Shown here piece by piece: positions 6,083 through 38,242 of a stretch of 64,000 nt of DNA. Origin of the DNA: Bacillota bacterium (GTDB taxonomy: Bacteria; Bacillota; Dehalobacteriia; UBA4068); NCBI GenBank assembly GCA_031553915.1, contig JAVBKT010000017.1:6357-70356 (forward strand), written 5' to 3'. Position 1 is the first letter of the stretch. Each line of letters starts with the position of its first letter. Under the pieces are notes generated by a model, which was given only the letters and a program-made list of their open reading frames with translations, ran no database searches and had not been told where the DNA came from. The position numbers and the translations under genes were made by a program.

Positions 6083-6410
6083 AACCCACCTCCTTGCTGA
6101 AATTATAACATAAAATAGTAATATCTTCCAAATATAGCATTTAACCCTTTGATTTGCTATTCCAGCGGGAGTTTTCAACAATGCCAAATCAGTTACAAAT
6201 ATGAAATTTAGCAAAAGTTTTTATAAATAGCAGTGATTTTACCATGTTATTATGTTATAATGGCTGCTAAGAACAAAATCCAAATTAGATTCTAGCCTCT
6301 ATTTTAGCCAATCGTTTTTTCGTAATAGTTTTATTTTTCCAGAAGAATTAATGACAACATGCGTATCGAAATTCAAGCAAACAACTCTCAAAAATAATCG
6401 GGGTGTGAAA

Positions 6411-7535
6411 ATGAAAAAATTTATATTAGTCTTTATGTGCCTGGCAGTTATTGTTTGTGTTGCCGCGTGTAGCGCCGAAGACCCTAATATAGCTGCTGAT
6501 CTTGCCACAGACCAGCCACTGCAAGCTACTAATAATAGCCAAACCTATGAATTAGCCTTGGTGACAGACTCGGGGACTATTGACGATCATGCTTTTAATG
6601 AAGGCGCTTGGCTGGGACTAAAAAAATATGCGGATGAAAACCAGATTACCTGCACCTATTACCAACCGGTTGAGGTTTCTGATGACTCCTATGTGCAGAC
6701 AATTACCACTGCGATTGAGAATGGCGCTAAGCTGGTGGTTTGTCCGGGCTCATATTTTGAAGTTGCTGTTTATACGGTGCAATATCAGTTTCCTGATGTC
6801 AAATTTGTGATTATTGATGGCGAGCCGCGGGCCAAGGATTTTAATACCAGCGCTGTGGAGGCCAATGTTCAGTCCATCTATTTTGCTGAACAGGAAGCAG
6901 GTTTTCTTGCCGGCTATGCCGCAGTCAAAAATGGCTTTACCAAGCTTGGCTTTATGGGGGGCTGGGCGATTCCTTCGGTAGTACGTTTTGGCTATGGCTA
7001 TATTGCCGGCGCTGACTATGCTGCTAAAGAGGACAAAGTTACCGGTGTGGAGATTAAATATCAATATACTAATACCTATTTGCCGTCAGAGCTGATCCAA
7101 ACTACGGCTTCTTCCTGGTATAATGCAGGTACGGAGATTATCTTTGGTTGCGGCGGCGCCCTTGGCCAAAGCGTTATGGCCGCGGCAGAACCAATCGGCG
7201 CTTATGTAATTGGCGTTGATATTGATCAAAGTCTGCTTTCCAGCACTGTGGTAGTATCAGCTGTCAAAAATATTCAGCAGGCAGTATACAGCAGTGTTGA
7301 GGATTTTTATAATGCCGAGTTTAAGGGTGGCGAGATAACCCGCTTAAATGTTGCTAATAACGGTGTGGGACTCTCGATGGAAAATTGCAAGCTGGAATTT
7401 TTTACCCAAGAAGATTATGATGCTATTTATGCCAAGCTGGCAGCCGGTGAAATCACTGTTCCCAATGATCAAAGCGGTTATAATGCTGCCAATGAATTGA
7501 ACACTGATAATGTGACAGTAACGGTGATCGAATAA
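6411..7535 (+). CDS. BMP family ABC transporter substrate-binding lipoprotein
   Basis: Lipobox VAAC; IDDHAFNEGAWLG, EAGFLAGYAA, IGVDIDQ. Confidence 0.88.
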   Translation: MKKFILVFMCLAVIVCVAACSAEDPNIAADLATDQPLQATNNSQTYELALVTDSGTIDDHAFNEGAWLGLKKYADENQITCTYYQPVEVSDDSYVQTITTAIENGAKLVVCPGSYFEVAVYTVQYQFPDVKFVIIDGEPRAKDFNTSAVEANVQSIYFAEQEAGFLAGYAAVKNGFTKLGFMGGWAIPSVVRFGYGYIAGADYAAKEDKVTGVEIKYQYTNTYLPSELIQTTASSWYNAGTEIIFGCGGALGQSVMAAAEPIGAYVIGVDIDQSLLSSTVVVSAVKNIQQAVYSSVEDFYNAEFKGGEITRLNVANNGVGLSMENCKLEFFTQEDYDAIYAKLAAGEITVPNDQSGYNAANELNTDNVTVTVIE

Positions 7536-10258: not shown

Positions 10259-12502
10259 TTGATGAGGGATACGAAGATATTGGATAAATTAAACCAAGAA
10301 CAAAGCAGAGCAGTTAATTCTCCTGGACAACATGTTTTGGTTGTAGCAGGAGCGGGCAGCGGTAAAACCAGAGTTTTGGTTCACCGCTTAGCTTGGTTGA
10401 TTGAAGAAAGACAGATCAACCCCAATCATATCATGGCAGTTACCTTCACCAATAAAGCTGCAAATGAGATGAAAGAGCGGGTAGAGGATATGACCGGTAT
10501 TAATACCCGGTGGATGTGGATTGGTACTTTTCATTCGCTGTGCAGCCGGCTGCTGCGTATGGAAGCTGAAAATTTTGGCATTGCGCGTGATTTTGTCATC
10601 TATGATGATGCGGACAGCAAGGCCTTGATTAAACGCGGCATTGCTGATTTGGGCCTTGTCACCGAAGAAAAAGATTATCATCCCGCTGCTGTTTTGGCGC
10701 AAATATCCGACGCCAAAAACAGGCTGCAAACGCCCGGCGAATATGAGCAGGTGGCCTCAGATATCTGGACGCAAAATGTGGCGAGGATTTACCGCCGCTA
10801 TCAAAACATGCTCAAGGCAGCCAATGCCTTCGATTTTGATGATTTGCTCACCCAAACAGTATGGCTTTTAGAAAAGCACCAGGAGGTGCTCGACCGCTAC
10901 CGTGAACGTTTCTCACATATTCTGGTGGATGAATATCAGGATACCAATCATTGCCAATACCGTTTTATTCGCCTTTTAGCTGGGGATCAAGGCAGCATTT
11001 TTGCCGTTGGCGATCCTGACCAGTCTATTTATAAGTGGCGTGGTGCGGATATTTCCAATATTCTTGATTTTACCAAGCATTACCCAGATTGTGTCGAGCT
11101 GCAGCTTAACCAAAATTACCGCTCTACGCAGAATATTCTTGATGCGGCTAATGCGGTTATTGCCAATAATCTGGCCCGTAAAGAAAAAAACCTTTATACT
11201 GATGCTGGCGCAGGCGAAAAGCTGACTTATTATCATGCTAATACTGACCGTGAGGAAGCCTATTATGTCTTGCAAACCATAGCTCATTTGGTAGCGGAAG
11301 GATATTCGCTTTCTGATTGCGCGATATTGTTCCGCACTCACGGCCAAAGCCGTCTCTTTGAACATGAATGCGTTAGGTTTAATATTGATTACCGCATCTA
11401 TGGCGGCCTCAAATTTTATGAACGCAAAGAAGTTAAGGACACCCTGGCCTATTTGCGTCTGGCAGCTAATCCATATGATACCGAGGCTTTACGCAGAATT
11501 TATAATGAGCCTAAAAGAGGCATCGGCAAAAGCAGCTGGGATAACTTGGTGGCAATTGCAGAAGCTAACGATAAACCGCTATGGGACGTTTTGGCTAATA
11601 TCAAAAACGAAGACGGCTTTAACAAAGCAGCAAACAAGAAACTGTATGATCTGTATCAGCTGCTGTGCCGGCTGCATGACTTTTCGGAAACAGGCGGCAC
11701 AATTGCGGAGCTAGTTAGTGAAGTTTGGCGCAGTACTAATTATCAGGAAATGCTGGCCAATGACCCCAAAAAAGAGGAAAAACAGGAGATTCTCGAGCAG
11801 TTTTTTGATGCAGCCAGTGATTTTGACCGCTATTATCAGGAAAACTATGAAACTATCCCCGAGGAAGAGCCAGACAGCCCCTTGCTCTCCTTTTTGAACC
11901 AGGTGGCCTTGGCTACAGACATGGATTCATCGTCCGAAAATCAGGACTATTTAACCTTGATGACTCTTCATGCTGCCAAAGGTTTGGAGTTTCCCGTCAT
12001 TTTTCTGGTAGGGATGGAGGAAGGGCTTTTCCCGCATAAGAGGATAATTTTCAGCCCGAGTGATGAGGAAATGGAAGAAGAGCGCAGGCTGTGCTATGTG
12101 GGCATGACCCGCGCCAAAGAGCGGCTGTATTTGACAGCAGCTATGAGCCGCCAGCAATGGGGGCGTTATGAGAATAATAAAACCTCCCGCTTTATCGGCG
12201 AGATTCCGGAAGCCTTAATGGATAAATCCGGATCGTATCAGCAGGCGGAAAATAATAGCTATAAAAAAGCGCAGCCCAAGCCGAAAAGGGAATCATTGTT
12301 TGTGCAAAACAAGCCCCTGCTTGCGCCAGCCAAACAGGTTGAGCTGATCTCAGTGGGCGATAAGCTGCGGCATGCCAAGTTTGGCGATGGGGTAGTGGTA
12401 AAAATTACTGGCGGCGGCGAGGATATGCTGTTGGAAGTAGCCTTCCCTAATCTTGGCATCAAGAAACTGATTTGGAAATATGCTCCGGTGAAAAAAATTT
12501 AG
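10259..12502 (+). CDS. pcrA: ATP-dependent DNA helicase PcrA/UvrD
   Basis: AGAGSGKT, VDEYQDTN, QNYRST, HAAKGLEF, EEERRLCYVGMTRA; adjacent to ligA. Confidence 0.96.
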   Translation: MMRDTKILDKLNQEQSRAVNSPGQHVLVVAGAGSGKTRVLVHRLAWLIEERQINPNHIMAVTFTNKAANEMKERVEDMTGINTRWMWIGTFHSLCSRLLRMEAENFGIARDFVIYDDADSKALIKRGIADLGLVTEEKDYHPAAVLAQISDAKNRLQTPGEYEQVASDIWTQNVARIYRRYQNMLKAANAFDFDDLLTQTVWLLEKHQEVLDRYRERFSHILVDEYQDTNHCQYRFIRLLAGDQGSIFAVGDPDQSIYKWRGADISNILDFTKHYPDCVELQLNQNYRSTQNILDAANAVIANNLARKEKNLYTDAGAGEKLTYYHANTDREEAYYVLQTIAHLVAEGYSLSDCAILFRTHGQSRLFEHECVRFNIDYRIYGGLKFYERKEVKDTLAYLRLAANPYDTEALRRIYNEPKRGIGKSSWDNLVAIAEANDKPLWDVLANIKNEDGFNKAANKKLYDLYQLLCRLHDFSETGGTIAELVSEVWRSTNYQEMLANDPKKEEKQEILEQFFDAASDFDRYYQENYETIPEEEPDSPLLSFLNQVALATDMDSSSENQDYLTLMTLHAAKGLEFPVIFLVGMEEGLFPHKRIIFSPSDEEMEEERRLCYVGMTRAKERLYLTAAMSRQQWGRYENNKTSRFIGEIPEALMDKSGSYQQAENNSYKKAQPKPKRESLFVQNKPLLAPAKQVELISVGDKLRHAKFGDGVVVKITGGGEDMLLEVAFPNLGIKKLIWKYAPVKKI

Positions 12503-12505
12503 TGA

Positions 12506-14871
<2,366 letters not shown>

Positions 14872-29837: not shown

Positions 29838-30316
29838 TATCGTGGCAAAAAGAAATTATTGAAGAAATGCAAAAGGCGCCTAAGATTGCAGTCTTAGGCG
29901 CCGGTTCTGTTCTTTGTGGTGATGATGCGGCAGGGATGATTGTTGTAGAAAAACTAGAGCAATTAGCCGCAAACAAGCCAAATTTAATAACATTGGGCGG
30001 TAGTACCGCACCGGAGAATTTTATTGGCGTATTGCGTTCCTTTGCTCCGGATTTACTTATTTTTGTCGATGCCGCTTATATTGACGGTGAAGTCGGAGAT
30101 ATTGCTCTTATTGACGAGAATGATATTACCGGGCTTAATTTTTCTACCCATATGTTACCCTTTGGCGTGCTGCTGAGTTTTATCCGCGCAGAAATACAGT
30201 GCAAAATTAAAATTATAGGCATTAAACCGGGTAATATGGATTTTGGCACAGAGGCGTCATTAATCATTGTACGCGCTGCTGAACAAATCGTAGAGACCAT
30301 CAACGCCAATAGTTGA
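29834..30316 (+). CDS. hycI: Hydrogenase maturation endopeptidase (HycI-like)
   Basis: GDDAAG, APENF, FVDAA, STHMLP. Confidence 0.88.
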   Translation: MISWQKEIIEEMQKAPKIAVLGAGSVLCGDDAAGMIVVEKLEQLAANKPNLITLGGSTAPENFIGVLRSFAPDLLIFVDAAYIDGEVGDIALIDENDITGLNFSTHMLPFGVLLSFIRAEIQCKIKIIGIKPGNMDFGTEASLIIVRAAEQIVETINANS

Positions 30317-30340
30317 TGGTAAAATATAATTATAAGAAAT

Positions 30341-30378
30341 AATAACAGCTAATTAAAGAAATTTAATTAGCTGTTATT
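30341..30378. terminator. Bidirectional terminator between hycI and lexA
   Basis: AATAACAGCTAATTAAA-GAAA-TTTAATTAGCTGTTATT. Confidence 0.75.
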
Positions 30379-31021
30379 ATTTAAGCTTGCGGAAAAGACC
30401 AATAGGCTTACCAAGTATTTCCATATGATCAGTATAAATAGGCTGCAGGAGATGATTTTCCGGCTGCAGACGGAAACGGTTTGTTTCGCGATAAAAAGTT
30501 TTAACCGTAGCCTCATCATCAATACAGGCTACTACAACATCGCCGTTTCTGGCGCTATTAGTTTCCTCTACAATCAGCAAATCGCCATCTTCAATGCCAA
30601 CTTCAATCATGCTCTCGCCATTAACCCGCAGCATAAAAAGCTGTTTGTTAGAATTGACAAAATTAAGCGGTACCGGAAAATAATCTTCAATATTTTCTTC
30701 CGCATAGGCCGGCTGCCCGGCACTCACTTTACCAATGAGCGGGATATCGACTATTTCCTGCTTGGCAAGAGTTGAAGAGGAGGGGAGAGTGTCTTCAACA
30801 GGCCATTTGAGAACTTCCATGGCCCGTCTTTTCAAGGGGTCTTTGCGGATATAACCCTTTCTTTCCAATGCGTCAATATGAAACTGCACGCTCGAAGTGG
30901 AACTCAGGCCGACTGCCTGGCCAATTTCACGTACTGAGGGAGGATATCCCTTGGTTTTTATCTGAGATTTAATGTAGTCAAATATTTCAGCTTGTTTAGG
31001 GTTTAGATCAAAATAATCCAT
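30377..31021 (-). CDS. lexA: SOS repressor LexA
   Basis: GYPPSVREIG wHTH, AG cleavage site (VSAGQP), catalytic GESM and ATVK; GGAGG RBS before ATG 31021. Confidence 0.96.
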   Translation of the reverse strand: MDYFDLNPKQAEIFDYIKSQIKTKGYPPSVREIGQAVGLSSTSSVQFHIDALERKGYIRKDPLKRRAMEVLKWPVEDTLPSSSTLAKQEIVDIPLIGKVSAGQPAYAEENIEDYFPVPLNFVNSNKQLFMLRVNGESMIEVGIEDGDLLIVEETNSARNGDVVVACIDDEATVKTFYRETNRFRLQPENHLLQPIYTDHMEILGKPIGLFRKLK

Positions 31022-31077
31022 ATTTCCACCTCCATAGAACAATCTATACTCATTATAGCACATCTTTTGCAAAAAGC

Positions 31078-31150
31078 AAACATTTGTTCATAAATTTTTC
31101 TTGACAAGGAACAAATGTTTGGGTATAATGCAAATATGGAACAAACGTTC
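31078..31150 (+). promoter_or_regulatory. Consensus SigA promoter of yneA with three Firmicute SOS (LexA) boxes
   Basis: TTGACA(31101)-17bp-TATAAT(31124); GAAC-N4-GTTC-type boxes at 31078-31089 (AAACATTTGTTC), 31109-31120 (GAACAAATGTTT) and 31139-31150 (GAACAAACGTTC). Confidence 0.9.
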
Positions 31151-31173
31151 ACGTATTAGTGGAGGAGTATGAT

Positions 31174-31476
31174 ATGAAAAAATCAATTAAAAGGCCAAGA
31201 AAATTGCGTTGTTTAATGGCGATAATTGCCTTTAGTTTGGTTGTCGTTTTAATGGTGTCCGGTTTTTCGGCACAAGCAGATGCCAATAATTTTACTAGTG
31301 AAAGAAAATTTACACCGGTATATGTGGTTTCCGGTGATACGCTTTGGAGCCTTGTGGAAGAGTATTATGATTATCAAGGGGATATCCGTAAGGCTATTAA
31401 TGAAGTGAAGAAAATAAACAATCTTGATAACGCCTCGATTCAGCAAGGGCAAATTATTTATATACCGGAAGCATAA
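31174..31476 (+). CDS. yneA: YneA-like SOS cell-division inhibitor (TM + LysM)
   Basis: Divergent from lexA; N-terminal TM; LysM motif VVSGDTLWSL...INNL...IQQGQIIYIP. Confidence 0.85.
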   Translation: MKKSIKRPRKLRCLMAIIAFSLVVVLMVSGFSAQADANNFTSERKFTPVYVVSGDTLWSLVEEYYDYQGDIRKAINEVKKINNLDNASIQQGQIIYIPEA

Positions 31477-31492
31477 GCTGCGCAGACAGAGC

Positions 31493-32971
31493 ATGTTTGT
31501 CAATACTTATTTCTTCTTTGTTCCTAATCGCTTAGTATGGGAACATTGGCAGCAGTTTATGGGTGAAAACACTGATTCTGCTTGGATTCCTCAGGTTGAA
31601 TATGAGATTCCTCAAATTGTTTCTCCAGCTGGTGGCTGGACTGTTGGTACTATTGCTGATTATTTTGGTATTCCTACTGGTGTTGCTGGTCTCTCTGTGT
31701 CGGCTCTTCCTTTTAGAGCCTATGCTTTAATTATGAATGATTGGTTTCGTGATGAAAATCTATCTAATCCTTTGAATATACCTGTTAATGATACTACTGT
31801 TACAGGTGTTAATAGTGGTGTTTTTGTTACTGATGTAGTTAAAGGCGGTAAGCCTTATATAGCTGCTAAATATCATGATTACTTTACATCTTGTCTTCCT
31901 GGTCCCCAAAAAGGCCCTAATGTGTCTATCGGTCTTGCTGGTGATGTACCTGTCTTTGGTAATGGACAGCAGCTTGGTTTAGTATCTAAAACTTTACCCG
32001 TTGGTGGATCTACACAGTATCTTGGTCTCGCTGGTACTACTGATAGTAAAATTGGTTTATCTGGTAGTGTGAATAATGAAATTGGATCTTCTATAAATTC
32101 TGGTGCTATGTATGCAAATCGTGCATCTGGTGTACCATCAAAAGAAATGTTAGATTTCGCTGATTATCCTTATGAACAAACTGGTCTTGTCGCTGATCTT
32201 GGTCTTGCTTCTTCTATCTCTGTTAATTCTCTTCGTCTTGCTTTCCAAATTCAAAAGTTATATGAGAAAGATGCTAGAGGAGGCACTCGCTATATTGAAT
32301 TACTTAAGGCTCATTTTGGTGTTACTTCTCCTGATGCTCGTCTCCAGCGTCCTGAATATCTTGGCGGAAATCGTTTGCCTATTAATATTAATCAGGTAGT
32401 GCAAAATTCTGAAACTGCTGAAACTCCTCAAGGTAATGTTGCTGGTTATTCTGTTACTACTGATACTCATAGTGATTTTACTAAATCTTTTGTTGAACAT
32501 GGCTATATCATTGGTGTTGCTGTTGCTCGCTATACTCATACGTATCAGCAAGGTTTACAACGCTTCTGGTCGCGGAAAGATCGTTTTGATTATTATTGGC
32601 CTGTCCTTGCTAATATTGGTGAACAGCCTGTCCTTAATAAAGAGATATATGCTCAAGGTAATGCTACTGATGATGAGGTTTTTGGTTACCAAGAGGCTTG
32701 GGCTGATTATCGTTATAAACCGTCTATTGTTACTGGTGAAATGCGTTCTCAATATGATATGTCGTTGGATTCTTGGCATCTCGCGGATGATTATGCTGCG
32801 CTTCCTATGCTTTCTAGTACTTGGATAATAGAGGATAAATCGAATGTTGATAGAACTTTAGCTATACAGAGTTCTATATCTAATCAATTTTTTGGTGATT
32901 TTTTCTTCCAGTGCAAAACTACTCGGCCTATGCCTATGTATAGTATTCCTGGGCTAATTGATCACCACTAA
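31493..32971 (+). CDS. Microvirus major capsid protein VP1, 5'-truncated but open
   Basis: FFFVPNRLVWEHW..FMGEN, ALPFRAYALI.NDWFRDENL, HDYFTSCLP.PQKG, DARGGTRY.E, RLQRPEYLGG, FGYQEAWADYR, RPMPMYSIPGLIDH; the usual N-terminal segment before this motif block is absent. Confidence 0.93.
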   Translation: MFVNTYFFFVPNRLVWEHWQQFMGENTDSAWIPQVEYEIPQIVSPAGGWTVGTIADYFGIPTGVAGLSVSALPFRAYALIMNDWFRDENLSNPLNIPVNDTTVTGVNSGVFVTDVVKGGKPYIAAKYHDYFTSCLPGPQKGPNVSIGLAGDVPVFGNGQQLGLVSKTLPVGGSTQYLGLAGTTDSKIGLSGSVNNEIGSSINSGAMYANRASGVPSKEMLDFADYPYEQTGLVADLGLASSISVNSLRLAFQIQKLYEKDARGGTRYIELLKAHFGVTSPDARLQRPEYLGGNRLPININQVVQNSETAETPQGNVAGYSVTTDTHSDFTKSFVEHGYIIGVAVARYTHTYQQGLQRFWSRKDRFDYYWPVLANIGEQPVLNKEIYAQGNATDDEVFGYQEAWADYRYKPSIVTGEMRSQYDMSLDSWHLADDYAALPMLSSTWIIEDKSNVDRTLAIQSSISNQFFGDFFFQCKTTRPMPMYSIPGLIDHH

Positions 32972-32983
32972 GGAGTGATTTTA

Positions 32984-33070
32984 ATGGATACTATTAAAAA
33001 AGTTTTTAAGGTGTTTATTTGGTTTATGCTTATTATGTGTGTTTTTTATCTTCTAGGTTTGCTTTTATAA
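32984..33070 (+). CDS. 28-aa single-TM phage peptide (MDTIKKVFKVFIWFMLIMCVFYLLGLLL)
   Basis: Translated by hand; AGGAG RBS overlaps the VP1 stop; its TAA overlaps the AAGGAGG RBS of VP2. Confidence 0.7.
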   Translation: MDTIKKVFKVFIWFMLIMCVFYLLGLLL

Positions 33071-33082
33071 GGAGGTTAAATT

Positions 33083-33961
33083 ATGGCTGTTTATCAAGCC
33101 GGTTCTGATGGTAATGCGCCTTCTGGTTTAAATCCCGGTGATTATGTTAATACTAATGGCGGTATGTATATGGTAGCCTCTCCTGGTGCTTATGGTTCTA
33201 TTTATAATCCGTCTTCTGGTTATTGGTCTGTTAAGGCTGATGGTTCTAGTCAGGTTTCTAATCAATCTTATTTGCAGTCCGCTCTTAATGCTGCTTCTAC
33301 TGTTGCTGAGTCTAATACTGATAGGTCTCAAGATATGGCTCGTGAGCAAATGGGCTTTCAAAAAGAGCAAAATGCTAGAGCTATGGCTTTTAATTCTGAG
33401 GAGGCACAAAAAAATCGTTCTTGGCAGGAAATGATGTCTAATACTGCTCATCAAAGAGAGGTAAAAGACTTAATTGCTGCTGGTATTAATCCTATTCTTA
33501 CTGCTACTGGAGGCAGTGGTGCTGCTGTAACATCTGGCGCCACTGCTTCTGGTGTTACTTCTTCTGGTGCTCAAGGTCAAGTGGATACGTCTTATAATAA
33601 TCTTGTTGGTGGTCTTATTTCTACGATGCTGAATAATCAGACATCTTTGGATATAGCAAAGCTGCAGGCTGGTATTCAGCAATATGTTGCTGATTCTAAT
33701 CGTCAAGCGACGCTCGGTGCTGCTGGTACTTCTGCTGCGGCATTGCTTGGAGCTGCTAATATTAATTCTGATACTTCCAAGTATATTAACCAACAAACTT
33801 TGGATCGTCCTAATTCTGTTGGTGGTATCGCTCGCCGTGGTTTAGAGTCTCTTAGTGAACTTATTGATAGTGGAATTAATTCTGCAAAAGGTTTGTTTTC
33901 TGGTTTTAATTGGAATGCTATTGCCGGCGGTCGTGATCTTACTGCCGGTAAAAAAAAGTGA
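33083..33961 (+). CDS. Microvirus DNA pilot protein VP2 (H-like)
   Basis: AQKNRSWQEMMSNTAHQREVKDLIAAGINPIL hallmark; Ala/Gln/Ser-rich coiled-coil; AAGGAGG RBS. Confidence 0.88.
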   Translation: MAVYQAGSDGNAPSGLNPGDYVNTNGGMYMVASPGAYGSIYNPSSGYWSVKADGSSQVSNQSYLQSALNAASTVAESNTDRSQDMAREQMGFQKEQNARAMAFNSEEAQKNRSWQEMMSNTAHQREVKDLIAAGINPILTATGGSGAAVTSGATASGVTSSGAQGQVDTSYNNLVGGLISTMLNNQTSLDIAKLQAGIQQYVADSNRQATLGAAGTSAAALLGAANINSDTSKYINQQTLDRPNSVGGIARRGLESLSELIDSGINSAKGLFSGFNWNAIAGGRDLTAGKKK

Positions 33962-33971
33962 AAAAAATTTG

Positions 33972-34026
33972 ACCGGCTTTGCCGGTTATGTCATGGGGCC
34001 CCATTCTTCTCTTGATGTAATGGGGC
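33972..34026 (+). other. Putative rolling-circle origin hairpins of the microvirus
   Basis: Stem GCCCCATT/AATGGGGC around loop CTTCTCTTGATGT (CTTGAT core, as at the phiX174 nick site); a second hairpin ACCGGC-TTT-GCCGGT. Confidence 0.6.
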
Positions 34027-34074
34027 TAAGTGACACCAAATTACCTAAAACAGAGTAGAGGAGGTGAGAACCTT

Positions 34075-34902
34075 GTGTCTTGTTATCATCCTCTGAAAGG
34101 TTTTCAGATTGGTCTTACCCCTTCGGGTAAGCCTGATTATAAAATAGTTTCTTATGATACTGATCATGTTGAAATTAAATTTAATGGTAGTGCAGATGCT
34201 TGTCCGTCGGCCACGCGCTCCGCTTATGCCAGACGTATTGTGACTGACTTTATCGAGATTCCTTGTGGTAGGTGTATTGGTTGTCGTCTTGATTATTCTA
34301 GACAATGGGCAGATAGGTGTATTCTTGAAATGAAAGAACACGATTCCAGTTATTTTGTTACTATCACTTATGATGATGAACATTTGCCCTTGCGTTCTTG
34401 GGTTGATACTGAGACTGGTGAATGTGGTAATGTTTCTACTTTGTTAAAGCGAGATTTCCAATTGTTTATGAAGCGTCTCCGTAAAGCTTATTCTCTTAAA
34501 TATTCTAATCCTTTGCGCTATTTTGCAGCAGGTGAATACGGTAATACTACTTTGCGTCCTCATTATCATGCTATAATATTTGGTTTAATTCTTGATGATC
34601 TTCAATTCTATAAAACATATAATGGATTTAATTACTATAATTCTGCGTTCTTAGATTCCTGTTGGCAAAATCGAGGTTTTATTGTCGTAGCAAAGGCATG
34701 TTGGGAGACGTGTGCTTATACTGCTCGTTATATCATGAAAAAACAAAAAGGAAATTCTGCTAGTGTTTACGAATATTATAATTTAGAACCCGAGTTTTCA
34801 TTGATGTCTAGAAAACCCGGAATAGGCCGTAGTTATTTCGACAAAAACGCCGATAATATATATTATGTTGAGTTGATATGTCTAAAAGATATCGCCAGTT
34901 AA
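34075..34902 (+). CDS. Microvirus replication initiator VP4 (HUH endonuclease); C-terminus runs through dif
   Basis: SCYHPL start after AGGAGGTG; PCGRCIGCRL; motif I FVTITY; motif II RPHYHAIIF; motif III YTARYIMKK; MSRKPGIG. Confidence 0.93.
   Translation: MSCYHPLKGFQIGLTPSGKPDYKIVSYDTDHVEIKFNGSADACPSATRSAYARRIVTDFIEIPCGRCIGCRLDYSRQWADRCILEMKEHDSSYFVTITYDDEHLPLRSWVDTETGECGNVSTLLKRDFQLFMKRLRKAYSLKYSNPLRYFAAGEYGNTTLRPHYHAIIFGLILDDLQFYKTYNGFNYYNSAFLDSCWQNRGFIVVAKACWETCAYTARYIMKKQKGNSASVYEYYNLEPEFSLMSRKPGIGRSYFDKNADNIYYVELICLKDIAS
34846..34873 (+). other. dif site (XerC/XerD-type), probable chromosome dimer-resolution site and prophage attR
   Basis: AACGCCGATAA-TATATA-TTATGTTGAGT has the 11-6-11 dif layout; gene orientation converges here. 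Confidence 0.85.
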
Positions 34903-35127
34903 AAGCATATTCTTTGACCCTTCCCTTTTTTAGTATATTATTTTATTGGTAACTACTAGAATAATATATTTATATTAGACCTTATTCATACTGTAGTGGC
35001 GTATATATATTAAGGGTAATAGCTTACCCTATGTTGTGGGGGCAGTTTTCCCCCGCCAGGTTCAGGCCTACTTACTGCACAATTATTATAATTGATAATG
35101 GGATTATGTCTATATTTACCTCTATCT

Positions 35128-36456
35128 TTATTGTTCAATTAACTGGCCGTAGAGGTTCCAAGTTTTTGCCTCAGTAATTTTGATTTGCACTAAGCTGCCG
35201 GAAGACAGCTCTCCTGCACCGGCAAAGGCCACAATTTTATTGCCGCTGGTGCGCCCGCACAACATATTATTGTTGTTTTTACTGATACCATCAACCATTA
35301 CTTCTTGTATGCTGCCCACGAGAGCCTGGTTTATTTGCAAGCTGATCGGGTTTTGTATATCCATTAACTCTTGCAGCCTTTGTTTTTTCACTAGTGAACT
35401 TAAATGCCCATCCATGTTAGCGGCTGTGGTACCGCTGCGTTTTGAATATAAAAAAGTATATGCCGCATCAAACCCGGCAGCTTTGATAAAGGCAATTGTC
35501 TCAGCAAAATCAGCGTCGCTTTCACCGGGAAAACCAACAATCAGGTCAGAGGTAATTGTTGCCTTAGGCGCTGTAGAGCGAATAATGCTCAGTTTAGAGA
35601 AATACTCCGCTGTGGTGTAGCCCCTATTCATTAGTTTTAAGATACGGTCTGAGCCTGATTGTACGGGCAAATGATAATGGTCGCATACTTTGTCCAGGCT
35701 GGCAATAGTCTCGGCCAAATAACGGTCAAAATCACGCGGGTGTGATGTCATATAGCGGATGCGATGCAGACCGCTGATATCGTTAATAGCAGTGAGCAAG
35801 CGGGCAAAATTCCAGCCGAGCTCAGGTATGTCTTTTCCGTAGGAATTGACATTTTGGCCTAAAAGCTGTATCTCCTTAATGCCGCCATCTGCCAGGCGTT
35901 TAATTTCGTCAATAATTTCTTGTGGTTGACGGCTGCGTTCTTTTCCCCTCACATAAGGCACAATGCAATAGCTGCAATAATTATTACAGCCAAAATTAAT
36001 ATTGATTTGTGCTTTATAATTATGCTCAAAATTATCATAGACTGCTGATAATTCCGGCCTGTCATAGCGCTCCTCAGTATCAACAATCCTTTGGCCATCC
36101 AAGTCATATTGTTCGATATATTGCGGCAGCAAAGCACTGGCAAAGGTGCCGATAATAATGCCGATATGGCGATATTTATCCATAAAAAGCTTGGCGACGC
36201 CATCTTTTTGCACCATGCAGCCGCACACAGCTATAATCAACTGAGGATTTACTTGTTTGAGATGTTTGATGCTGCCAATGAAGCCTAGCGCCCTGTTTTC
36301 GGCACTCTCGCGAATGCAGCAGGTATTAATGATAATAATATCTGCTTTTTCTACTGAATCACAAGCAATATGCCCTGCTGAATTAAGCATTGAGGACATA
36401 ATATGGGAATCATTTTCATTCATTTGACAACCAAAGGTTTGAATAAAATATCGCAT
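35128..36456 (-). CDS. miaB: tRNA methylthiotransferase MiaB
   Basis: TFGCQMN, NTCCIRE, CNNYCSYCIVP, C-terminal TRAM domain. Confidence 0.95.
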   Translation of the reverse strand: MRYFIQTFGCQMNENDSHIMSSMLNSAGHIACDSVEKADIIIINTCCIRESAENRALGFIGSIKHLKQVNPQLIIAVCGCMVQKDGVAKLFMDKYRHIGIIIGTFASALLPQYIEQYDLDGQRIVDTEERYDRPELSAVYDNFEHNYKAQININFGCNNYCSYCIVPYVRGKERSRQPQEIIDEIKRLADGGIKEIQLLGQNVNSYGKDIPELGWNFARLLTAINDISGLHRIRYMTSHPRDFDRYLAETIASLDKVCDHYHLPVQSGSDRILKLMNRGYTTAEYFSKLSIIRSTAPKATITSDLIVGFPGESDADFAETIAFIKAAGFDAAYTFLYSKRSGTTAANMDGHLSSLVKKQRLQELMDIQNPISLQINQALVGSIQEVMVDGISKNNNNMLCGRTSGNKIVAFAGAGELSSGSLVQIKITEAKTWNLYGQLIEQ

Positions 36457-36469
36457 ATTGCCTTCTTAA

Positions 36470-38242
36470 TTATTTTGTAGCGCGGAAATCCACAACCTGT
36501 AAGCGTGGGGTTTCCTTGCCATTATAGATATTCACATGCAGTGAATAGATTATGTCTATTTTTACGGTATCTCTTCTCTGCCCTGCCAGCAATTCCTGCC
36601 AATATCTGGCGGGATAATTGTCTTCGATATATGCCTTGAGCTTGTCTTTTGCGGAGAAATCCACAAATTCAGCCAGGTGCCCGGCAGTATCTTTCATTAA
36701 TAACCGCATCACCTGCTCTTCTTTACCAAAGAGAACTATTTTCTCAATGGAAAGGTTTTTGGCAGCCAAAAGCGGCGCAGGATTACTTTTGCCATATGGA
36801 GCCAGCAGGTTTAGCTCTCTGGCCAATTGCAAAGAGGCAAAGGTTGGCTGCAGCGGACAATCAATACGGAATACCTGCTGTATATCATCATCGCTCAGCT
36901 CACATAAAGCATTGATTTTTTGCCGGAAAACATCTACTTTGGCACGTTCAATAGTCAAGCCGGCAGCCATAGGATGCCCGCCAAAAACAACTAAAAGATC
37001 CCGGCACGAGCTTAGCCCTTCAAAAATATTATAGCAATCAATGGAGCGGCAGGATCCGTGTACAATATCAGTTTTGCCTGCCAACACTATTACGGGCTTA
37101 TGATATTTTTCTTTAATCCGTCCGGCGATGATGCCGGATACGCTTTCAAAGAAATCCGGAGAATAGATAACCACTATTTTATCCTGATCCAGATGGTCCT
37201 CGGCAATGATTTCAGAAGCCAGATTAGCGCCGTCCTCTGTCAGTTGGCGGCGCTGTTTGTTCATCCCCACTAATTCTTGTGCGATATTAGCTGCTGTGTC
37301 ATCATCCTCTGTTAAAAGCAGCTCAACGGATATATCAGCTGTTTCCAGGCGCCCGGACGCATTGATGCAGGGACCAAGCACAAAGCCTATGTGAAAGACA
37401 TCCAGTTCTTTGTCTTGCAAATCAGTGGCCTGTAATAAAGCCTGCAGGCCACTGATGGGGCTGTTTTTAATCAGCGGCAGACCTTTTTGTACCAATAAGC
37501 GGTTCTCCCCTGTCAAATCTACTAAATCGCAAATGGTAGCAATAGTCACCAGGGGTAAAAAGTATTCATTGAGGCTATTCCAAGGCTGATTAAGGCGTTG
37601 ATACAGTGCCTCGGAAAAGCGGTAACAAAGCGCTGCTGCGCAATATTGTTTGTATGGATATGGGCAATCGCTTCTTTTGGCATCGACCACAGCCAAAGCC
37701 GCAGGCAATCGCTCGCCCGCTTGGCTGCCTTCATCTTCTTTGATTAGGCCGTGGTGGTCAAGGATAATAATATCCATACCAATAGACATAGCATAATTCA
37801 CTTCATCAAAAGCAGAAATACCGTTATCACAGGCAATAATTAAATCAAAACCATCATCTCTCAGCATGGCGATCGCCTCTTTATTGAGGCCGTAGCCTTC
37901 TTCCCTGCTGGGAATATAGTATTCAATCTCGCCGCCCAAATTTTGGATTGATTTATAAAGAATAACTGTGCTGGTGATCCCATCCGCATCATAATCACCA
38001 TAGATCACAATGCGCTGACCATTTTTTAGAGCGTTAATTGTGACTGATACGGCTTTGTCCATATCGGCAAAAGCAAATGGATCGGCTAAGGGAGTATCCT
38101 CCCTAGTAGTAAAAGCGGCAATTTCGGCCGGGGTTTGATAACCACGCACCGCAAGAATACGCGCCAAAACAGGAGAAACTCCTGATTGGCGCGCTAATTC
38201 TTCAACATTAGTGGTCGTTTGCCGCAGCATCCATTTTGCCAT
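36470..38242 (-). CDS. recJ: ssDNA exonuclease RecJ
   Basis: YGDYDADG, LDHH, INASGRL, GGHPMAAG. Confidence 0.95.
   Translation of the reverse strand: MAKWMLRQTTTNVEELARQSGVSPVLARILAVRGYQTPAEIAAFTTREDTPLADPFAFADMDKAVSVTINALKNGQRIVIYGDYDADGITSTVILYKSIQNLGGEIEYYIPSREEGYGLNKEAIAMLRDDGFDLIIACDNGISAFDEVNYAMSIGMDIIILDHHGLIKEDEGSQAGERLPAALAVVDAKRSDCPYPYKQYCAAALCYRFSEALYQRLNQPWNSLNEYFLPLVTIATICDLVDLTGENRLLVQKGLPLIKNSPISGLQALLQATDLQDKELDVFHIGFVLGPCINASGRLETADISVELLLTEDDDTAANIAQELVGMNKQRRQLTEDGANLASEIIAEDHLDQDKIVVIYSPDFFESVSGIIAGRIKEKYHKPVIVLAGKTDIVHGSCRSIDCYNIFEGLSSCRDLLVVFGGHPMAAGLTIERAKVDVFRQKINALCELSDDDIQQVFRIDCPLQPTFASLQLARELNLLAPYGKSNPAPLLAAKNLSIEKIVLFGKEEQVMRLLMKDTAGHLAEFVDFSAKDKLKAYIEDNYPARYWQELLAGQRRDTVKIDIIYSLHVNIYNGKETPRLQVVDFRATK

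Follow-up and report, generated by a model that had tools for sequence, protein, structure and literature searches.

Integrative mobile elements exploiting Xer (IMEX), such as the Vibrio CTX phage, are integrase-less phages with single-stranded DNA (ssDNA) which enter the chromosomal dif site by means of the host recombinases XerC and XerD, and defective, locked-in copies of them are known. Copies lying between two dif sites in direct repeat are unstable, being substrates for deletion by XerCD/FtsK. Integration of gokushoviruses by Xer at dif was shown experimentally in E. coli, where its dependence on XerC and XerD was established with knock-outs and continuous excision was reported (Kirchberger and Ochman 2020, eLife, PMC7062461). 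The dif motifs of these phages are described there as mostly non-coding, and sometimes as situated at gene ends or at the N-terminus of VP4. Complete microviral prophages were described in 2022 from isolates of Erysipelatoclostridium and Mammaliicoccus sciuri and were presented as the first from Gram-positive bacteria (Kirchberger, Martinez and Ochman 2022, mBio, PMC9239249); the main text of that article does not contain the word "Xer" and does not state the integration site. In another paper of 2022 the predicted hosts of microvirus prophages were Bacteroidales, Hyphomicrobiales and Enterobacteriaceae (PMC9753089). The subject of this report is a 3.39-kb element at positions 31490-34873 of a 64,000-nt stretch (here called the window) of contig JAVBKT010000017.1, from the Bacillota assembly GCA_031553915.1. 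The element lies between yneA and miaB, carries VP1, VP2 and VP4 of a gokushovirus-like microvirus, and is a real, recent and defective remnant at the dif site of a Bacillota chromosome, providing a sound host link.

The element shares with IMEX the lack of a recombinase of its own, the position at the host dif and a host which encodes both XerC and XerD; flanking by two dif-like sites (attL and attR) was not found. IMEX such as Vibrio CTX are, in contrast, filamentous, proteobacterial and unrelated to it in sequence. The element also resembles the enterogokushovirus prophages of Escherichia, which have a gokushovirus gene set, no integrase and a position at dif. As described, those prophages are complete (4.3-4.7 kb), have bacterial and phage dif motifs, are excisable and revivable and reside in Gram-negative hosts (PMC7062461), whereas the window, from a monoderm-type Bacillota, holds a 3.39-kb fragment with a single dif, the joint apparently falling within the 3' third of VP4. 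Like the Erysipelatoclostridium and Mammaliicoccus prophages it is a microvirus in a Firmicutes chromosome; those are reported as complete and from isolates (PMC9239249), while this one is truncated, at dif and in a metagenome-assembled genome (MAG).

Only three long open reading frames (ORFs) were found between yneA and miaB, and all three are viral, on the + strand and open (Table 1). The ORF containing VP1 (31424-32971) matched Pfam Phage_F (PF02305, E 8.9e-156) and the major head protein family phrog_514 (E 6.6e-196). The VP2 frame matched several PHROGs annotated "pilot protein for DNA ejection", phrog_21483 being the best, and residues 1-287 of 312 of the VP2 of Gokushovirus WZ-2015a (KT264769) align to it. 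The VP4 frame matched PF23343 (REP_ORF2-G2P, E 1.2e-16) and phrog_942 (replication initiation protein, E 6.9e-99); VP4 is an HUH-type replication initiator, in which the motifs PHYHAIIF and YTARY, invariant in 17 of 17 aligned sequences (alignment A3), are present. The closest complete genomes likewise have the order VP1-VP2-VP4. Thymine occupies 63%, 65% and 55% of the third codon positions in the VP1, VP2 and VP4 frames, compared to 33-39% in seven of seven flanking host genes, and the AT skew across the element ranges from -0.11 to -0.30. Based on the Pfam and PHROG matches of its frames, no recombinase gene is present in the element, nor is there one beside it, the neighbours being LexA, a LysM protein and MiaB. 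The first-pass annotation of this DNA had proposed the gokushovirus gene order, the T-rich codon bias unlike the flanks and the absence of an integrase, and these searches agreed with it on each point. The insertion is recent, since its T-rich composition is unameliorated and its three frames are still open.

Table 1. Features of the remnant and its surroundings, in window coordinates
Feature	Position	Strand	Basis
lexA (host, left flank)	30377..31072	-	Pfam Peptidase_S24 E 1.1e-35, LexA_DNA_bind E 2.8e-24; syntenic with relatives
yneA promoter-like site, TTGACA-17-TATAAT, 12/12 match	31101..31150	+	promoter scan
yneA-like LysM gene (host), complete to stop codon	31159..31476	+	Pfam LysM E 6.4e-05
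Left junction, 16 nt GCTGCGCAGACAGAGC, yneA stop to first VP1-homologous codon	31477..31492		sequence
VP1 major capsid gene without first 61-71 codons, otherwise open	31490..32971	+	Pfam, alignment to relatives
VP2 (DNA pilot protein), full length, 292 aa	33083..33961	+	phrog_21483 E 1.6e-79
VP4 replication initiator without last 75-85 codons	34030..34902	+	PF23343, phrog_942
dif site, 11-6-11, AACGCCGATAA-TATATA-TTATGTTGAGT, read as hybrid attR	34846..34873	+	unique in genome, conserved in relatives
miaB (host, right flank)	35128..36456	-	Pfam Radical_SAM, UPF0004, TRAM; syntenic in relatives

The phage genome is incomplete, a feature which the first-pass annotation had missed: VP1 and VP4 are cut short, VP3 and VP5 are absent, and a left copy of dif is lacking. 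The Phage_F match begins at profile position 62 of 501, and VP1 residues 72-566 of the relatives in IMG/VR, or 62-574 of KT264769, align to 31490-32968 with nothing aligning upstream. With VP4 proteins of relatives (337-349 aa) the alignment goes no further than their residue 259-274, which corresponds to 34878-34884 in the window. In comparison with P0002, the closest VP4 protein (344 aa, 76% identical, from a large protein collection), and with fifteen others (341-359 aa), the window VP4 ends after ...YFDKNADNIY, a loss of about a quarter of the protein. The idea that VP4 continues past dif in another frame (SKRYRQLKAY, resembling GGRKFRPPKYY of relatives) was rejected, as tblastn with the proteins of six relatives gave nothing right of 34884 at E<1. 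Neither VP3 nor VP5 was found in the window by tblastn with the proteins of relatives. When the whole host genome was searched in the same way with proteins of IMG/VR relatives (VP1 from locus L018, the other four from L017), no VP3 match was obtained and the sole VP5 match had an E value of 0.47.

The complete relatives are circular and ordered VP1-VP2-VP4-VP5-VP3, so that the retained 3.39 kb, mapped onto them, is one contiguous arc of about 70% of the phage genome. What is missing, 1.3-1.4 kb out of an estimated 4.7-4.8 kb, forms the complementary arc, consisting of the VP4 C-terminus, VP5, VP3 and the VP1 N-terminus. Where a complete circular ssDNA genome would measure about 4.3-6.3 kb, only this linear arc is present in the chromosome, and among the contigs matched to the window no joint marks a circle or an excision. 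Because VP1 and VP4 are truncated and VP3, VP5 and attL are missing, the element is a dead, non-excisable and non-viable remnant and not a complete excisable or inducible prophage. The earlier description of a prophage at dif therefore stands as to the position, which is a real dif, and falls as to a complete excisable genome, with 1.3-1.4 kb missing and a single dif-like site.

VP1 matched 3625 of 50,697 phage records, the best being KT264769 with 67.4% identity over all 493 retained residues; NCBI files this record under Gokushovirinae. It is a complete circular genome of 4821 nt from fox faeces with the order VP1-VP2-VP4-VP3. In a search of IMG/VR with the window VP4, 597 of the 599 matched stretches were relatives, and among the best 80 of the 597, which were kept, VP4 is 55-59% identical at best and the genomes are circular, 4.8-5.2 kb in length and ordered as given above. 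A search of IMG/VR with alignment A4 gave three relatives among 23 stretches (best 53%), and the closest relative among metagenome contigs (L109) is 62% identical. In a quick maximum-likelihood tree of VP1 (24 rows; SpV4 translated with table 11 and its 9 stops set to X), the window pairs with KT264769 (SH-aLRT 98), within an 11-row clade (96) which also contains L099, from a Clostridia-labelled MAG, and L171, a dif-flanked prophage. Chp2 and phiMH2K are placed elsewhere in the gokushovirus-type group, and the F protein of phiX174 is far outside. Based on the profile matches of VP1, VP2 and VP4 and on this tree, the element is assigned to the gokushovirus-like Microviridae (Family 3 in the sense of PMC9239249), with VP3 and VP5 lacking; the affiliation given by the first-pass annotation is thus retained.

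A scan with the VP1 alignment of one genome per prokaryote species revealed 10 loci, seven in MAGs titled Clostridia, Clostridiales or Lachnospiraceae, one in Bacteroides sp. CAG:545 and two unclassified. The Clostridia-labelled MAG loci L099, L101-L105 and L108, and the metagenome loci L171 and L160, resemble the window in VP1 (44-62% identical) and in having bacterial flanks, but differ from it in keeping VP5, VP3 and a full VP4; the MAG loci with flanks are complete and ordered VP5-VP3-VP1-VP2-VP4.

The 28-nt word at the right edge of the element is the only dif site of the host genome, and it is conserved at the lexA-yneA/miaB locus in the family. When the 1.72-Mb genome was searched for a 21-mer of it, allowing up to 3 mismatches, there was a single hit, and the backwards control gave 0. 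A weight matrix derived from nothing but 5 empty sites of relatives gives it a score of 36.0, the runner-up in the genome, on another contig, reaching 18.9. The GC skew is positive to the left of it and negative to the right, and the cumulative skew of the contig (C7) peaks at 40-44 kb, with dif at 41.2 kb. Among the 30 other genomes of the family, the 25-mer CCGATAATATATATTATGTTGAGTT was found once each in six at up to 3 mismatches (backwards control 0), 100% identical in G019 and G022 and with 1-3 mismatches in G003, G005, G015 and G016. All six sites lie beside the lexA locus and are without phage. The arrangement in G003, a genome of the same genus, is lexA - yneA - about 76 nt - dif - about 70 nt - miaB, which is the empty locus that the first-pass annotation had suggested looking for, and it had likewise placed the right edge correctly at an 11-6-11 dif. 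VP1 was found in none of the 30 other genomes, 15 of them with a completeness of 90% or more. In G015 the interval of 3 kb from dif to miaB was considered as a mobile element and rejected, being a P-type ATPase gene. The host encodes XerC (TIGR02224, 336.6 bits, NCBIfam cut-off 335.15; contig C12, 84040-84915) and XerD (TIGR02225, 336.1 bits, cut-off 329.6; contig C5, 320219-321073).

At the right joint, the dif 28-mer coincides with VP4 codons 273-282, its left arm overlapping codons 273-276, and the VP4 frame crosses dif and closes with about 10 codons encoded by the host. Homology with the closest relative continues across the left arm and reaches the spacer (window FDKNADNIYYVEL, P0002 FDKNIDKIFDSDF; in the wider alignment, P0002 ...YFDKNIDKIFDSDF... 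and window ...YFDKNADNIYYVEL...). The outer left arm is AACG in the window, as against ACTT in four of the six empty sites, TTGG in G003 and TATT in G015, while the inner left arm, spacer and right arm match the family site. This is the pattern which a crossover within dif would leave, with the left arm probably derived from the phage and the right arm from the host.

The left joint is of a different kind. VP1 begins at the codons MFVNTYFFF, aligned with (I/M)YLDTYFFF of relatives, and the yneA-dif spacer (about 76 nt plus dif in G003) is mostly gone. The junction word GCTGCGCAGACAGAGC is in no phage relative; two of 201 loci have it, both being copies of the window. No dif-like word was found at or near 31477-31500, and hence no left dif copy. 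A dif-like half-site was considered and rejected, as was a left deletion made by Xer at the VP1 "MDNIY" codons (weakly dif-like in relatives), no CCGATAA being kept at this place in the window. Microhomology between the G003 spacer word ATGTTTTAAATACTAAT and the window word ATGTTTGTCAATACTTAT was likewise dismissed as chance, since 70 of 2000 shuffles scored equally.

The support for both joints was assessed in Logan contigs. In the DNA run one of these spans 30300-31547 and another 31580-36500, each with 0 differences and a depth of 10.8, so that each joint is bridged and, as far as contigs show, the chimera named in the first-pass annotation as a possible refutation is absent. Between them, the 92-nt VP1 stretch 31518-31609 is a separate contig of depth 20.5; it is therefore shared with some other sequence of the sample, possibly a free or second microvirus. 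The sole joint listed in the DNA run, from 35865 to 36418, is in miaB, and none skips the element. In run X2, made from the RNA library of a different sample in the study, contigs with 0 differences cover 31213-31547, crossing the left joint, 33012-33428, 34199-34704 and lexA. Such contigs could come from contaminating DNA and show neither strand nor level. The same run has no contigs for the VP1 interior, the right joint and miaB, and run X3 next to none, gaps from which absence is not to be concluded. Both sides carry host genes in conserved synteny within one 76-kb contig. With contigs bridging both joints and synteny on both sides, an assembly chimera is unlikely.

Relatives with host flanks were inspected for the way in which they are inserted. 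They are linearised between VP4 and VP5 (L101, L102, L104, L105, L108) or between VP2 and VP4 (L112, L115, L118, L147, L171, L173). In L171 and L160, metagenome contigs of 68.8 and 8.6 kb, a complete relative (VP4-VP5-VP3-VP1-VP2) lies between the dif-like 28-mers ACTTCGCATAATGTATATTATGTAAATA and CGTTCGCGTAATAGATATTATGTAAATT (6778-6805 and 12206-12233 in L171; 316-343 and 5757-5784 in L160), with an Xer-like recombinase gene 1.6 kb away; Atlas clusters of Bacillota and Bacteroidota matched the L171 host at equal score. In 171 microvirus loci (991,017 nt), dif-like words were convincing only in L171, L160 and KT264769, hits in L016, L138 and L051 being rejected for lack of the ATAA/TTAT inner arms. 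The KT264769 word GGTTTTGATAATGTATATTATGCTGTAT is on the minus strand in the 3' part of VP4 (3823-3850 in L095), at codons ~310-319 of 349, and its score was reached by 1 of 200 shuffles. This word suggests that KT264769 may also use Xer as a free phage. It differs from the window in being a free complete genome without a known host and in having its word on the other strand, about 36 codons further downstream. Loci L101, L102 and L112 are bounded by direct repeats which are not dif-like. In L101 (Lachnospiraceae MAG) the complete locus lies between 25-nt exact direct repeats ATCTCTTCGCAAAACCTGTCTTTTG (6247-6271 and 11254-11278), the right copy being half of a perfect hairpin with the 12-nt repeat TTGCATAATACC nearby, which suggests another integration route. 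In L105 (JAFQKB010000047.1, a Clostridia MAG, 153-kb contig) a gene for a 342-aa tyrosine recombinase (12275-13303, Phage_integrase E 4e-33) follows the VP4 of a complete microvirus locus by about 190 nt.

The most probable explanation of the window locus is that Xer joined dif with a dif-like word in VP4 and that attL and the adjoining 1.3-1.4 kb were subsequently deleted. A gokushovirus-like microvirus would have delivered its genome into a monoderm-type Bacillota cell, where the double-stranded replicative form would have been recombined with the chromosomal dif by the host XerC/XerD. The phage partner site would have been a dif-like sequence in the 3' third of the VP4 rep gene, at codons ~273-282, and the product of insertion would have read attL - VP4 C-terminus - VP5 - VP3 - VP1 - VP2 - VP4 N-terminus - attR. 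A later, ordinary non-Xer deletion from the yneA-dif spacer into VP1 codon ~62-72 would then have taken attL and the adjoining phage DNA, leaving a locked remnant of 3.39 kb and a single hybrid dif (phage left arm, host right arm) which would now be the only dimer-resolution site of the chromosome. Since copies flanked by two dif direct repeats are expected to be unstable, a copy with one site is the kind that persists. We infer the order of these events and the phage origin of the left arm, and Xer as the joiner from the position of the joint only.

Several observations weigh against this explanation. VP4 is full length in 6 Clostridia-labelled MAG loci and in 5 metagenome loci with host flanks on both sides, which places the attachment point of these relatives outside the gene. 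For attP to lie within VP4 would be unusual, and rep would be broken by insertion at such a point. The region after YFDKN varies among relatives, and ADNIY was assigned to the phage by 3 identities (N, D, I) and conservative changes. The outer left arm could be host sequence, as it varies among host genomes too. The assembly may have been built from the DNA run, which is for that reason not independent, and the right joint has no contig in run X2.

A more far-reaching version can be entertained only tentatively, namely that the lineage is temperate on monoderm Bacillota with its natural attP inside rep, insertion splitting and silencing rep and excision restoring it, and that the window holds a decayed lysogen cotranscribed with the SOS gene yneA. 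If true, there would be first evidence here that a microvirus hijacks Xer in a Gram-positive-type host and that an attachment site can double as a replication switch.

A three-event history, with Xer entry through a non-coding attP, a second Xer deletion between attR and a chance word in VP4, and the left deletion as the third event, is rather unlikely. It would account for the full-length VP4 of the flanked integrated relatives, which are linearised outside VP4, and two direct-repeat dif-like sites are substrates for XerCD/FtsK deletion; the perfect dif regenerated at the right joint fits it as well. However, three events are needed instead of two and no trace of non-coding phage DNA is found between VP4 and dif; on the present data its outcome is the same as that of direct joining within VP4.

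It is doubtful that the remnant was kept for a benefit to the host, for example a truncated Rep or capsid which would interfere with superinfecting microviruses and which read-through from yneA would express during the SOS response. In favour of this, all three frames remain open across 3.4 kb, VP4 keeps PHYHAIIF and YTARY, and the remnant starts 16 nt after yneA, the scan revealing no convincing terminator between them. At the 12/12 yneA promoter there are two LexA-box-like words, GAACAAATGTTT (31109-31120) and GAACAAACGTTC (31139-31150), which overlap or follow it; they were so named on the basis of GAACNNNNGTTC, which we take to be the LexA-box consensus. The RNA-library contigs on the element are also in line with expression, and the one across the left joint fits read-through from yneA, a hint which falls short of proof of transcription. 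Against this, open frames are expected anyway from a recent insertion of unameliorated composition, the presence of the remnant in this genome only (none of 30 others) gives no sign of retention over time, and the RNA-library contigs may be contaminating DNA of no known strand or level.

Misjoining of a free microvirus contig into a bacterial contig during assembly or binning is highly improbable. That the genome is a MAG and that the stretch 31518-31609 has double depth speak for it, but conserved host synteny flanks the element on a 76-kb contig, the right joint is inside the host's own dif, the separate assembly by Logan spans both joints at flank depth and a contig from the RNA library of another sample crosses the left one; moreover, a misjoin would not exactly remove the yneA-dif spacer and leave one perfect dif. 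That an intact, inducible gokushovirus prophage lies between dif sites is hardly credible either, in spite of three hallmark genes in the right order with open frames, phage-like composition and the position at dif, since, counted on relatives, VP1 begins only at residue 62-72 and VP4 already ends at 259-274 of 337-349 residues, VP3 and VP5 were found in neither window nor genome, the left joint has no dif-like word and the element measures 3.39 kb against 4.8-5.2 kb for complete relatives.

The source genome is a Bacillota MAG of 1.72 Mb, 98.6% complete, from an invertebrate gut metagenome. Spo0A was found in it (153.8 bits), LpxC and Omp85 were not found in this 98.6%-complete genome, controls being positive in the expected diderm genomes, and the nearest Atlas clusters of its RecJ are Bacillota. 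On these grounds the host is read as a monoderm-type Bacillota, the support reaching phylum level only and hence falling short of the "Clostridia-like" host of the first-pass annotation.

Few gokushovirus-like microviruses have been linked to hosts other than Gram-negative bacteria, and the earliest reports from Firmicutes date from 2022 (PMC9239249). The locus is a chromosome-anchored link of such a microvirus to an uncultured, Spo0A-bearing Bacillota of the invertebrate gut in which LpxC and Omp85 were not found. Because the joint lies inside the host's only dif, there is good indication that the Xer route of enterobacterial gokushoviruses also operates in a monoderm host. The locus illustrates the decay of such insertions, in which one dif copy is lost, the remnant is locked in and the resolution site is kept; it yields no revivable phage. 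The novelty claimed in the first-pass annotation was overstated, since complete microviral prophages in Firmicutes isolates had been reported in 2022 (PMC9239249); these prophages and dif integration in enterobacteria (PMC7062461) are both already published. A literature search, with supplements outside its scope, found no paper on dif integration of a microvirus in Firmicutes.

In G003 the yneA-like gene likewise adjoins lexA, and its promoter is arranged identically, with LexA-box-like words. Elsewhere in the host genome (G000, contig C20, 58637-59306, - strand; L201, 8635-9306), a 223-aa ORF without a Pfam family adjoins genes for a barnase-like ribonuclease and barstar. Its first 39 residues (MATYKVNSDGKAPSGLSLGDVVVTGGGTY...) are common to the N-terminus of the window VP2, and the same stretch matches phrog_21483 positions 1-39 (E 2.7e-06). 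This ORF could be a scrap of a second microvirus or contain a module common to phage and host proteins.

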